Shown here: piece after piece, positions 1,505 through 27,177 of the stretch | Layout: each line of letters begins with the position of its first letter | Position numbering within the stretch: the stretch's first letter is position 1 | NCBI GenBank assembly: GCA_019058295.1 | Contig: JAHPZI010000008.1 | Span: 68,132-98,864 of the forward strand | Source: Promethearchaeota archaeon | GTDB taxonomy: Archaea > Asgardarchaeota > Lokiarchaeia > Sigyniarchaeales > SOKP01 | DNA: 30,733 nt | Direction of reading: 5' to 3' | Made by a program: the position numbers and the translations under genes | The notes under the pieces: model-generated | Seen by the model: the letters and a program-made list of their open reading frames with translations, nothing else | What the model was told of the DNA's origin: nothing | Databases searched by the model: none

Positions 1505-1576
1505 TGCGCCCTCCGGGAATTGAACCCGGGTCCTCGGGTTGGAAACCCGAGATTCTTACCACTATACTAAGAGCGC
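1505..1576 (-). tRNA. tRNA-Gly (anticodon TCC), no intron, CCA not encoded
   Basis: Minus strand reads GCGCTCTTAGTATAGTGGTAAGAATCTCGGGTTTCCAACCCGAGGACCCGGGTTCAATTCCCGGAGGGCGCA. Acceptor stem GCGCTCT/AGGGCGC, anticodon loop TTTCCAA, T-arm CCGGG-TTCAATT-CCCGG. Confidence 0.97.
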
Positions 1577-18355: not shown

Positions 18356-18604
18356 TTGAAAGGTTGGGTTAAACTAAATATATTTTATCTTGGCAAATCC
18401 AAAAAGAATCAAATCTTTAGGAGTACTCGTTGGAATCGGGCTAATGATGAAAAAATTTTTAGAAAAACTGTTTATAACGAAGAATACGAGAAAATTGGAT
18501 ACATTAAAGAAATTTTTGGCCCTTTAAAATTACCTTTTATATCGATTAAAACCATCCCCGGTCAAGAATTTAATCCCAAAAACAATCTTTACGTTAAAGT
18601 GTAG
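18356..18604 (+). CDS. gar1: H/ACA RNP subunit Gar1/Naf1
   Basis: V.......IG.I.EIFGP...P...IK core; directly upstream of tfb, the usual archaeal arrangement. Confidence 0.8.
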   Translation: MKGWVKLNIFYLGKSKKNQIFRSTRWNRANDEKIFRKTVYNEEYEKIGYIKEIFGPLKLPFISIKTIPGQEFNPKNNLYVKV

Positions 18605-24787: not shown

Positions 24788-25258
24788 TTGAGTTCTTCTC
24801 GAGACGAGCGAATGTTAAAGCAGATATTAACTACAATTATAAATAGTGCAGCAGGATTAAAATATGCCATAATAATTGATGATACAGGATTAACTATTGC
24901 CTCTCAATCTAAATTTACTTTTACCGATGATGATCAAGTTTCAGTTGAAAAAATTGGAGCTATTGGGGGAGCAGTCTTTACTGCTGGAGAAGAACAAGGA
25001 CAAATCCTTGGTTATGGAGATATAAATCTTCAAATTACTGAATATAAAAAAGGGTTGATTTTCTCAATTAAACTTGATGACGGCGTTTTAGTTCTCGCAA
25101 CAGATTTAAATGTACAAGTTGGATTTATTCGCGCTCTTTTGAAGAAATGGGCCCCTCGGATCACAAAAATTTTAAATAAATACTTAGAAAGCAGTGATCA
25201 AAAAGCAATGAAAGAAGAATTAAAAGAGCTTTTTAGTACTGATTCTTTAGGGTTTTAA
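24788..25258 (+). CDS. Roadblock/LC7 (MglB/LAMTOR-like) protein with C-terminal helix
   Basis: L..I......L.YAIIIDDTGLTIAS, IGAIG.AVF..GE...L.YG.I....EY..G and GVL.L.TD.....G.IR..L. Confidence 0.85.
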   Translation: MSSSRDERMLKQILTTIINSAAGLKYAIIIDDTGLTIASQSKFTFTDDDQVSVEKIGAIGGAVFTAGEEQGQILGYGDINLQITEYKKGLIFSIKLDDGVLVLATDLNVQVGFIRALLKKWAPRITKILNKYLESSDQKAMKEELKELFSTDSLGF

Positions 25259-25312
25259 ATTAAAAACTCATTTTAATATGGATATTTTTTAAAATAAATC
25301 TCATAGCGTTTT

Positions 25313-25325
25313 AAATAAATAAAAA
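25313..25325 (-). terminator. U-rich terminator of the H/ACA RNA
   Basis: Minus strand TTTTTATTTATTT begins 13 nt after the last ACA box. Confidence 0.5.
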
Positions 25326-25329
25326 GGTA

Positions 25330-25643
25330 AGGCATTATTGTAGCCTAAAGAGCCGAAACACACTAACACATCTCTCTCATTTAAAGGATATACCGTAAAA
25401 TCGAAAAAGTTCTCTCGTGTTAGGCGTTAATTTCATGCCTTGTTGGGTCATAACCATGTCTGCGACCTGGGTACTGGCTTCAACCTCATTGCTTTGATAT
25501 TTATCGTTGCTTGGTTAAGAGCCCATTTTATTCGCAGCTAATTGCTGATTATTAAACTCGGGATGTTCGCATTTCTTTGCACACATAATCATCGATATTC
25601 ATATGTGCCCTCGAAAACGCAGATACTCCGTCATTATTTTCCC
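25330..25643 (-). ncRNA. Triple-hairpin box H/ACA pseudouridylation guide RNA
   Basis: Three hairpins (25568-25621, 25460-25537, 25343-25425), each with a lower stem, an internal pocket, a K-turn/K-loop carrying AUGA on the 3' side, and an ACA box at its base (25564-66, 25457-59, 25339-41). Stems need G.U pairs that exist only on the minus strand. GC-richer than the flanks, with no long ORF. Confidence 0.85.
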
Positions 25644-25665
25644 AATATAATAATAGAAAAATAAT

Positions 25666-25680
25666 TTTATAAAGATTTTG
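25666..25680 (-). promoter_or_regulatory. BRE/TATA promoter of the H/ACA RNA
   Basis: Minus strand CAAAATC-TTTATAAA, about 23 nt upstream of the GGG at 25643-25641 (predicted start). Confidence 0.6.
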
Positions 25681-27177
25681 TTAATGTTTTCTTCTTAACT
25701 TATCTAAAAATTTATGTTCCGTTTTTCTCCTTATTAAGACGGCATAGATGAGCCCTATGGAAAAAAGTGTACAAATTCCTACTATAATATTAATTTCATA
25801 ATCTGGAAGCCATCCTAGACCTTCTGTATCATAAAATACCTCGCCAGTTTTAGAATCTCTAAAAACCTTACCCCCTGCAGCTCCCTGTTCACTATATGCA
25901 ATGACTATTTCCCAATCTTTTAGTTCATTATCTGGATTGTCTGGATCTACTTGACCATCTTCATATTCGAATTTAAGAGTTATAACAGTTCCATCGAGTT
26001 CTACATCTCCTTTCACTTTTAGATCAGGATTAAGACCTCCGATATTCGTCTCATAATCTTCACCATCAATATCAAAATCATCAATTACTGTCGCAAGATA
26101 TTTATCCGTTGGAGTATATGTTGGTAAACCCTCCATCATTAACATATAAAAGAAATTAAATTTTTCTGGAATTTCCTCATCAATAATTTCCCGTATTGCC
26201 AGTAATGCCTGTGTGCCTTCTTGAATAGGATTCTCTCCAGTTGGATTAAGAGCTGCATCTAAAACTACCGCTGGTAAATTATCCCCTCCTTCGGAAAGTC
26301 TAGGGCGTGGTATCCCTAATTCGTCTTCAAGTGTAGTGGCTATTGTCTTATTAATTTCATTCCAAAGACCAAAATCTTCATTCCTTAAATACGTAAATGA
26401 ATCATTAAAGGCATATATGGAATTTACTACTAAATCACTTCTATAATATAGCTCAGATTCTAAATCTTTTAATTTTTTATATGTATCGTACCAACTATGA
26501 GGGTCTGCCAAGAATGGGCCCCCACCTTTACTATCTGGTTTATCAGGAAAATCTCCTTCAATTCTTCTAGACCATCCTCTTGTTTCCACCATAGTACCGT
26601 CCAATTTTTCACCATATTTATTATTCACATAAGTCTGATCCATTGAATAATTTCGACAAAAATCTGTTGCAATAGAACCGTTTCCAACAACAGCGGACAT
26701 TGGAAGATCTCCTAATTCAAGAACGGAATTAATTACTCCCTCATATAGAAGAACTACTGCACCAAATCCACTTTCATTATCTCCAAGCCCATTTGTAGCG
26801 TCCATTATGTAACCAAAAACACTATTGAAATCTGTAATTTCTTCTATACTCTCAACATCGACATCTACGGTAAGTATATAGTCGGCAAAAAAATCAATTT
26901 CACATTCTTCCCAATCGACAAGTTTTCCCTTACTTTTTGCTCCAACAACGTCAGCATATTTCCCAAAAAAATCGTCTGGGTTATCAGCCCCCACTCCTAA
27001 ATGATCATCCCATTCATCCTCGTCGTATAATATTACTCGTGACTCTCCTTCAAGCTTCAGATCTCTAGTAATTTCAGGTACTCCAAATTTATAACCCCTC
27101 ACAGGTTTTGCCATAGAAAAAAAGCTAATGACAAAAATGAAAATAAAAAATACAAAATATATAATTTTTTTATTCAT
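25681..27177 (-). CDS. Acidic secreted cell-surface protein with C-terminal membrane anchor
   Basis: MNKK + hydrophobic signal peptide; Asp/Glu-rich body; LPDY + TM + RRK tail resembling the Loki-CTERM (IPGY-type) sorting signal. Confidence 0.8.
   Translation of the reverse strand: MNKKIIYFVFFIFIFVISFFSMAKPVRGYKFGVPEITRDLKLEGESRVILYDEDEWDDHLGVGADNPDDFFGKYADVVGAKSKGKLVDWEECEIDFFADYILTVDVDVESIEEITDFNSVFGYIMDATNGLGDNESGFGAVVLLYEGVINSVLELGDLPMSAVVGNGSIATDFCRNYSMDQTYVNNKYGEKLDGTMVETRGWSRRIEGDFPDKPDSKGGGPFLADPHSWYDTYKKLKDLESELYYRSDLVVNSIYAFNDSFTYLRNEDFGLWNEINKTIATTLEDELGIPRPRLSEGGDNLPAVVLDAALNPTGENPIQEGTQALLAIREIIDEEIPEKFNFFYMLMMEGLPTYTPTDKYLATVIDDFDIDGEDYETNIGGLNPDLKVKGDVELDGTVITLKFEYEDGQVDPDNPDNELKDWEIVIAYSEQGAAGGKVFRDSKTGEVFYDTEGLGWLPDYEINIIVGICTLFSIGLIYAVLIRRKTEHKFLDKLRRKH

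Follow-up and report, generated by a model that had tools for sequence, protein, structure and literature searches.

A three-hairpin RNA conserved across Asgard archaea is very probably a box H/ACA guide with three predicted targets in 23S ribosomal RNA

A stretch of 30,733 nucleotides (nt) from a Promethearchaeota archaeon (assembly GCA_019058295.1, contig JAHPZI010000008.1, positions 68,132 to 98,864; hereafter the window, whose own numbering is used throughout) contains, on its minus strand at about 25643-25329, a single-copy non-coding RNA gene of about 315 nt that is conserved across Asgard archaea. We propose, with high confidence, that its product is a box H/ACA guide RNA with three hairpins, the Asgard counterpart of the small RNAs (sRNAs) Pab40, Pf7 and Afu4, and that it most likely guides pseudouridylation at three sites in the functional centre of 23S ribosomal RNA (rRNA). 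An earlier note, written from the letters of the window alone, had already read a triple-hairpin H/ACA guide at this place. On re-reading, its three-hairpin features are present on the minus strand where it put them, and the reading is borne out by kink-turns (K-turns) or kink-loops (K-loops), A-N-A boxes, covarying stems and the canonical complementarity of hairpin 1 to 23S rRNA.

Results

Covariation defines a folded minus-strand RNA

The structure was evaluated on a hand-curated set of 62 pairs in 14 helices, using an alignment of 29 sequences of family members. In these homologues 94.8% of the pair cells are paired, compared with 31-42% when the partners are slid. Compensatory double changes occur in 36 of the 62 pairs, and none of 500 shuffles reaches any of five measures. 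The covariation in relatives that the earlier note had proposed to test is there. G.U cells number 117 and A.C cells 15, an excess that indicates that the minus strand is the folded strand. The arrangement of lower stem, internal loop and upper stem is backed by covariation in all three hairpins, and distant homologues are alike in this respect. In four motifs of the K-turn type, the letters UGA and GA vary little or not at all. In an archaeal ANA box, by definition, both A residues are fixed and the middle letter is variable, as set out by Muller et al. 2008 (PMC2377435). All three boxes of the Asgard RNA have this form, both A residues being invariant in the relatives and only the middle letter varying: ACA or AUA in 28 and one sequences for hairpin 1; ACA or AUA in 20 and eight for hairpin 2, the remaining sequence having a gap or an A at the middle position; and ACA or AAA in 28 and one for hairpin 3.

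Single-sequence folding of the minus strand reproduces the three hairpins anticipated by the earlier note, yet with an unremarkable z of -1.36 (plus strand, z = -0.04), so the hairpins appear but are not significant on the fold alone. The structure nevertheless goes far beyond chance, and it is covariation rather than folding that carries it.

The RNA is single-copy in its genome and recurs across the phylum. In BLAST searches, matches with 69-97% identity along about 300 nt came from some 32 of 36 genomes of the family and from nowhere else. A covariance model of hairpin 3 recovered the RNA in 113 of 126 family genomes and gave weaker matches in four other families of its class and in seven families that belong to other classes of the phylum. 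We read the flanks of 15 distant covariance-model matches and of one weak second match in a family genome (G068). Elements of hairpin 1, hairpin 2 or both, with identical loop sequences, lie upstream of nearly all 15 distant matches. Among the partial cases, one lineage (f31) has hairpins 1 and 3 only, one stretch from family f12 (L098) has no recognisable hairpin 1, and one match (L096) has no clear upstream hairpins. The second match in G068 (L075; G068:C17:42369-42472, minus strand; E = 2e-10) is a solitary and degenerate copy resembling hairpin 3, at a distance of about 500 nt from the main RNA.

Throughout the phylum the loop strands are near-invariant while the stems covary. The strands in question are CGAGG and GCA(A) in hairpin 1, A(Y)GGGCU and ACCC in hairpin 2, and GAGAG and GUUAGUG in hairpin 3. 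Near-invariant loops on covarying stems are the pattern expected of guides that are constrained by rRNA.

Hairpin 1 has a canonical predicted target in helix 89

Candidate targets were sought by scanning each lineage's own guide against its own large-subunit rRNA. Because no rRNA was found in the window's genome, 23S sequences were taken from relatives that carry the RNA, and positions are given in E. coli numbering. Genome-wide, the scan returned as many matches for the guides as for shuffled guides in this AT-rich genome, and among transfer RNAs (tRNAs), RNase P RNA and signal recognition particle (SRP) RNA no convincing target was found. The geometry against which the rRNA matches can be judged comes from PMC2377435: the target U stands 14-15 nt from the ANA box, the upper stem has 5-6 base pairs (bp), a UNN trinucleotide is tolerated and the 3' guide plays the dominant part.

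Hairpin 1 (25564-25621) is the clearest of the three. Its lower stem is UGCGUU/AAUGCG, followed by the 5' guide UUCGAGG (25615-25609), a K-loop upper stem (25601-25588) in which GCACAUA/UAUGUGU encloses U.U, G.A and A.G, the 3' guide GCAA (25580-25577) and ACA (25566-25564). Both the stems and the K-loop are as first described. So is the 14-nt distance of ACA from the upper stem, which, counted from GCA to ANA, is kept in 28 of 29 homologues. The site UUGC[UU]CCUCGA(UG) is the top match in all six lineages tested, with canonical UN geometry and no skipped nucleotide. We take this target to be U2496, in the 3' strand of helix 89 and next to the peptidyl-transferase loop, from a gap-free alignment to the E. 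coli sequence.

Hairpin 2 points to the peptidyl-transferase centre

Hairpin 2, together with its closing stem AUAAUC/GGUUAU, occupies 25450-25552. The lower stem CUGCGA/UCGCAG is present, with ACA (25459-25457) directly after it, as previously noted. The 5' guide is AUAAAAUGGGCU (25531-25520). The apex, earlier called K-turn-like, reads as a canonical K-turn with a GC/GC C-stem, an AAU bulge and G.A and A.A pairs (AA at 25512-25511, AAUGA at 25490-25486). On the 3' side, a CCAGU spacer precedes the 3' guide ACCCAG (25472-25467).

The ACCC element stands 13 nt from the ANA box in 28 of 29 homologues, while the spacer after the upper stem varies from 3 to 7 nt. By eye, the 13-nt spacing also recurs in most of the further families that were inspected (f5, f7, f9, f12, f15 and f27). 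Hairpin 2 matches the 14-15-nt rule only when this 3-7-nt spacer is ignored. With the guide defined by the ACCC-ANA spacing, (GC)UGGGU[UU]AGACCGU is the top match in f1, f7 and both f12 genera, and in three of these four lineages its score exceeds the 95th percentile of shuffles. The predicted target is U2585/U2586, in the peptidyl-transferase centre. A longer hairpin 2 5' guide in f12 agrees with rRNA letters specific to f12.

In Lokiarchaeia, the segments CAG and AAUGGGC of hairpin 2 can also pair with the A loop, GCUG[UUC]GCCCAUU (U2554/2555). One f2 genome lacks the ACCC element, and there the A-loop register agrees with a spacing of 15 nt. The target of hairpin 2 may thus be dual or lineage-dependent. 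Scans in which the 3' guide had to adjoin the upper stem gave the A loop for hairpin 2, a reading that was demoted once the ACCC-ANA spacing and the scan based on it favoured U2585/U2586. As a separate observation, the A loop, usually invariant, reads UGCUC in f12 23S (L103-L105; C at E. coli 2554) and UGUAC in f7 23S (L084; A at 2555), and the stem of helix 92 is also altered in f12.

Hairpin 3 is conserved, with a tentative target in helix 69

Hairpin 3 and its closing stem AAGGCAU/AUGCCUU lie at 25329-25441, with a lower stem GCCUAA(CAC)/(GUG)..UUAGGC, a 5' loop GAGAGAA (25416-25410), a 3' loop UGUUA-GUG (25368-25361) and a GA/UGA motif. In an alignment of its own, this part of the RNA is 86.9% paired, compared with 40-53% after sliding, and no shuffle of 500 matches it on four of five measures. 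The closing stem covaries between families (GGCAUAGA/UCUAUGCC, CUGGC/GCCAG and GAGCGCC/GGCGCUC) and both strands are deleted together in three genomes.

Two details of the original description of this hairpin required revision. The GCCUAA/UUAGGC stem and a nearby ACA are indeed present, the ACA (25341-25339) following UUAGGC by one nucleotide, but the ACA is not 14 nt below the pocket. In this genome 27 nt separate the upper stem from ACA, as opposed to 17 nt in other genera, because the subclade of the window carries an insertion of 10-11 nt in the 3' strand (25349-25360) that is found in five of 29 sequences, all of that subclade. Measured from UAGU to the ANA box, the distance is 14-15 nt in 24 of 29 homologues and 24 nt in the window's subclade. 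The K-turn likewise stands in a weaker form: GA does face UGA, with one bulged U and not a canonical three-nucleotide bulge, which forms only when two A-U pairs are opened.

We tentatively assign hairpin 3 to the loop of helix 69, with U1915/U1917 as the candidate target. GUUA (or UAGU) and GAGAG complement UAAC (or ACUA) and CUCUC, which flank the helix 69 loop, and U1915, U1917 or both would stay unpaired in between. At guide position 321, Lokiarchaeia have a G that faces C1920, and one f12 genus has a C that faces G1920; an extra G in one family falls in the unpaired part of the loop. Other registers (among them UAAC[UC]UCUU and ACUA[UAAC]UCUCUU) were considered and none was statistically distinguished. 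A likeness of the 5' loop ACGAGAGAAC to the sarcin-ricin sequence was set aside, as no structural or pairing rationale was found for it. One 23S gene (L106, from genome G251) appears to contain an insertion of several hundred nucleotides, probably an intron, that directly follows helix 69 on its 3' strand, and the H/ACA RNA of the same genome has hairpins 1 and 3 only.

Additional stems and a C/D-like K-turn

Several elements go beyond the three hairpins. An outer stem formed by UGGG in the 5' end region (25641-25644) and CCCA (25444-25447) encloses hairpins 1 and 2; it is 94.7% paired, with two compensatory pairs. The 5' leader AAAU-AAU-GA-C-GGA (25627-25639) provides the bulged strand of a C/D-like K-turn, and UCC-C-GA-GUUU (25554-25563), directly 3' of the ACA of hairpin 1, provides the non-bulged strand. 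UGA is present in 29 of 29 sequences and GA in 27 of 29, and the C-stem and NC-stem both covary. We regard this leader K-turn as a putative fourth L7Ae site. Beyond each ANA box there is a closing stem, which places the box inside an internal loop. The upper stems have 6-7 pairs in hairpin 1 and 6-7 pairs with one bulge in hairpins 2 and 3, the count depending on whether a closing G.U or A-U pair is included.

Evidence for expression and for protein partners

Five metatranscriptome studies, with six runs between them, contain the sequence of the RNA, and in four of these studies the contigs are confined to 25396-25632. Three contigs are exact matches of 163-176 nt, one exact match has a depth of 38, and on either flanking open reading frame (ORF) no metatranscriptome contig was found. 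Of the minus-strand transcript of about 310 nt that the earlier note had said to look for, contigs from RNA libraries cover 25396-25632; its strand and ends are not given by them. Genes for Nop10 and L7Ae are present in this genome, and each of the 25 relatives searched has Cbf5. On the plus strand at about 18458-18595, some 7 kb from the RNA gene, the window contains a Gar1-like ORF; it scores 27.7 bits against a Pfam cut-off of 29.3.

Genomic setting

The RNA gene occupies an AT-rich intergenic region. It is flanked by a Roadblock/LC7-like ORF on the plus strand (24788-25258) and a minus-strand ORF of 498 amino acids (25681-27177), and it is overlapped by no ORF of at least 60 amino acids, the sole frame being one of 40 amino acids at 25542-25664 on the plus strand. 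A TATA-like box, TTTATAA (25667-25673, minus strand), lies 26-27 nt upstream of GGG (25643-25641), the presumed 5' end, and an A/T-rich TTTWWWA block occurs at this position in 29 of 29 homologues and also in a GC-richer relative (L070). A T-rich tract follows the last stem (25311-25328, with a T-run at 25325-25321), and comparable T-runs are found 3' of the RNA in many homologues. The TATA box (given as 25666-73) and trailing U-tract of the earlier note correspond to these two elements, which we infer to be a promoter and an archaeal terminator, respectively. The host had also been named correctly as an Asgard archaeon, since relatives of the neighbouring proteins carry the names Promethearchaeota or Lokiarchaeota.

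This setting bears on whether the RNA could be a cis-acting element, either a 3' untranslated region (UTR) or antisense RNA of the convergent Roadblock/LC7-like gene or the 3' UTR of the 498-amino-acid gene. Both the conserved place of the Roadblock-like gene, which is convergent with the RNA in nearly all family genomes, and the lack of strand information in the RNA contigs would suit such an element. The 498-amino-acid gene, however, adjoins the RNA in the three closest genomes only; the G.U over A.C excess and all of the motifs belong to the minus strand, opposite to the Roadblock gene; the contigs stop short of both ORFs; and the TATA-like box keeps a fixed upstream distance. We therefore consider a cis-acting role to be very improbable.

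Two further observations concern the surroundings. The Roadblock/LC7-like ORF encodes 156 amino acids and its Pfam matches are weak; inside its 3' end, at 25189-25248 on the plus strand, is a weak SNORD36-like C/D pattern (E = 1.2) that is probably due to chance. A tRNA gene at 1505-1576 (minus strand) is the sole Rfam match in the window at gathering score.

Comparison with known RNA classes

At gathering scores Rfam gave no match at the RNA locus, and in E-value mode it returned chance-level matches only (SNORD36, mir-427 and a viral pseudoknot). The Rfam search proposed in the earlier note thus gave no credible match. RNase P RNA and SRP RNA were rejected as identities, as both are located elsewhere in the same genome and their Rfam models do not match here. 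A box C/D sRNA was likewise rejected: the C/D-like K-turn encloses an H/ACA hairpin, and neither C'/D' boxes nor guide segments were seen.

Discussion

The closest likeness to the Asgard RNA among known guides is found in the Pab40/Pf7/Pho40/Afu4 group, box H/ACA sRNAs with three motifs that are described for Thermococcales and Archaeoglobus by Muller et al. 2008 (PMC2377435). There, motif 1 of Pab40 guides position 2588 of Pyrococcus abyssi (Pab) 23S rRNA; motif 2 of Afu4 and Pf7 was first proposed to guide Pab 2647 and later predicted to guide Pab 2678; and motif 3 guides Pab 2016, in the loop of helix 69. The paper also reports experimental demonstration of modification at P. abyssi 2588 and of in vitro guiding at 2016. 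Our predictions of the Asgard targets were made before comparison with Table 1 of that paper. An offset of 92 between Pab and E. coli numbering was inferred here for domain V, and with it each of the paper's eight domain V sites agrees with the helix named for it. On this numbering Pab 2588, 2678 (2647) and 2016 would be E. coli 2496, 2586 (2555) and the helix 69 loop. The likeness is then threefold. Three H/ACA motifs are combined in one RNA, and every motif has an ANA box and either a K-turn or a K-loop; the predicted targets are the same and, by this numbering, follow in the same 5'-to-3' order as hairpins 1-3; and the two proposals for motif 2 of Afu4 and Pf7 (2647 and 2678) equal both registers of the Asgard hairpin 2. 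The Asgard RNA also has features beyond what the text of PMC2377435 describes for Pab40, namely a C/D-like K-turn around motif 1, closing stems past the ANA boxes, upper stems of 6-7 bp and, in motifs 2 and 3, spacers of 3-7 nt that precede the 3' guide. The two RNAs are likened here by targets and motifs, and Rfam gave no match.

A second likeness is to an sRNA of Haloferax (Grosjean 2008; Blaby 2011; Majumder 2016, PMC5029457), in which the order of targets is that of Asgard hairpins 2 and 3. This H. volcanii sRNA has two stem-loops, the 5' stem-loop guiding 2605 and its 3' counterpart both helix 69 sites; pseudouridines at 1940, 1942 and 2605 are shown experimentally, and U2604 and U2612 are unmodified (PMC5029457). 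That paper equates H. volcanii 2605 with E. coli 2572; we infer that it corresponds to E. coli 2586, in which case 2604 and 2612 would be U2585 and U2593. The use of a single pocket for two nearby uridines in Haloferax fits the 3-5 unpaired nucleotides of our model for hairpin 3. The Haloferax sRNA has two hairpins and no helix 89 motif, as opposed to three hairpins in the Asgard RNA.

Eukaryotic H/ACA guides modify the same rRNA positions: in yeast, snR46 guides 25S position 2865 and snR191 positions 2258/2260. These guides have two hairpins, bind Nhp2 and lack K-turns, and in yeast these sites are served by separate small nucleolar RNAs (snoRNAs), unlike in the case of the one Asgard RNA. 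Of the two, snR191 is named in PMC5029457. Composite sRNAs of the Pab21 type, as presented in PMC2377435, resemble the Asgard RNA in combining an H/ACA hairpin and a C/D-type K-turn in one transcript. In the Asgard RNA, by contrast, the C-like AAUGAYGGA and the D-like YNGA flank hairpin 1 and form one K-turn, and neither C'/D' boxes nor a methylation guide is evident.

These comparisons also bear on whether the RNA might belong to an undescribed structured class that shares only K-turns with H/ACA RNAs. The lack of an Rfam match would be in keeping with a new class, as would the atypical size (about 315 nt) and the atypical, compact arrangement of many stems. Against this, three A-N-A boxes stand at fixed distances from conserved loop strands, these strands complement rRNA in H/ACA geometry and are top-ranked in independent lineages, and the set of targets is identical to that of known H/ACA sRNAs. 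We find an undescribed class scarcely credible, less so even than a cis-acting element. The earlier note, aware of few described H/ACA RNAs in Asgard archaea, had left novelty to be settled by a search. No description of an Asgard H/ACA guide RNA was found in the searchable literature; as its predicted targets and their order match those of euryarchaeal sRNAs, the RNA is less novel than had been hoped.

A number of observations weigh against the assignment of the RNA as a three-target H/ACA guide. Some concern its identity and expression. In Rfam searches up to E = 10 the locus matched neither an H/ACA family nor any other credible one; a search for Cbf5 in this genome, which is 79% complete, found none; and the RNA-library contigs convey neither strand nor ends nor level and could conceivably include DNA carry-over. 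Others concern geometry. ANA boxes followed by a closing helix are undescribed for characterised H/ACA ribonucleoproteins (RNPs), the upper stems of 6-7 bp compare with 5-6 bp given for Pyrococcus in PMC2377435, and in hairpins 2 and 3 the 3' guide has to be set off from the upper stem by 3-7 guide nucleotides that stay unpaired. Still others concern the targets. For hairpin 2, the U2585/6 and A-loop registers compete, and an apparent covariation with the A loop in f12 is confounded, being explicable by the ACCC element. For hairpin 3, the window's own sequence is 10 nt off the expected ANA spacing; the pairing with helix 69 consists of 4 + 5 bp with 3-5 unpaired target nucleotides and scores below the median of shuffled guides; and another f12 genome has a C:U mismatch where guide-target covariation was expected. 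Finally, the conversion of P. abyssi and yeast positions to E. coli numbering is our own and is absent from the papers.

Several of these same observations would be accommodated if the RNA formed an L7Ae/Cbf5-type RNP that acts mainly as a ribosome-assembly chaperone or scaffold, holding helix 69, helix 89 and the peptidyl-transferase loop, with some or all of its pockets silent. The non-canonical features, that is the fourth K-turn, the stems that close over the ANA boxes and the spacers that precede the 3' guides, could be understood in this way, as could the statistically weak complementarity of hairpin 3 and the invariance of its loop even though it is off its usual spacing in the window's genome; all three predicted sites, moreover, belong to the functional core of the large subunit. 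Hairpin 1, on the other hand, is fully canonical, with a 14-nt spacing, a UN dinucleotide and 4 + 6-7 bp, and the strict 13-nt ACCC-ANA spacing of hairpin 2 is what a catalytic ruler would lead one to expect. The orthologous sites also have experimental support, at P. abyssi 2588 and 2016 (PMC2377435) and at H. volcanii 1940, 1942 and 2605 (PMC5029457). A predominantly chaperone-like function appears improbable to us.

For the RNA as an H/ACA guide we propose the following scheme. A stable minus-strand RNA of about 315 nt would fold into three H/ACA hairpins, and L7Ae would be expected to bind the K-turn or K-loop of each. One set of Cbf5, Nop10 and Gar1 would assemble on each hairpin, at the lower stem and the ANA box. 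The strands of the internal loop would then pair with 23S rRNA on both sides of a uridine, which Cbf5 would convert to pseudouridine. The C/D-like K-turn that may clamp hairpin 1, the closing stems and the unpaired spacers in hairpins 2 and 3 would be elaborations of this basic plan. The conservation of the gene, its structure, motifs and spacings, its complementarity to rRNA and its presence in RNA libraries are observed; the protein binding, the catalysis and the modified positions are predicted.

It is tempting to go further and imagine a single compact particle with several copies of Cbf5, built on four L7Ae sites, locked ANA boxes and an outer stem that joins hairpins 1 and 2. Such a particle might engage helix 69, helix 89 and the peptidyl-transferase loop (and, in some lineages, the A loop) together during assembly of the large subunit, with hairpin 2 switching or sharing targets between lineages. 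It could represent an ancestral 'functional-centre' snoRNP that was later split among eukaryotic snoRNAs. We offer this model as speculation and think it rather unlikely as a whole.

Importantly, these data define an RNA family that extends across the phylum, has a defined structure and testable rRNA targets, and was missed by Rfam. Through this family, a guide known from Euryarchaeota is connected with those archaea that stand closest to eukaryotes. Two or three of its predicted target positions are among the most conserved pseudouridine sites and are served in eukaryotes by separate snoRNAs, which makes this RNA a useful anchor for tracing how snoRNAs diversified. The fourth K-turn, the enclosed ANA boxes, the spacers and the apparently lineage-dependent target of hairpin 2 could, in turn, refine the rules by which H/ACA RNPs position their substrates.

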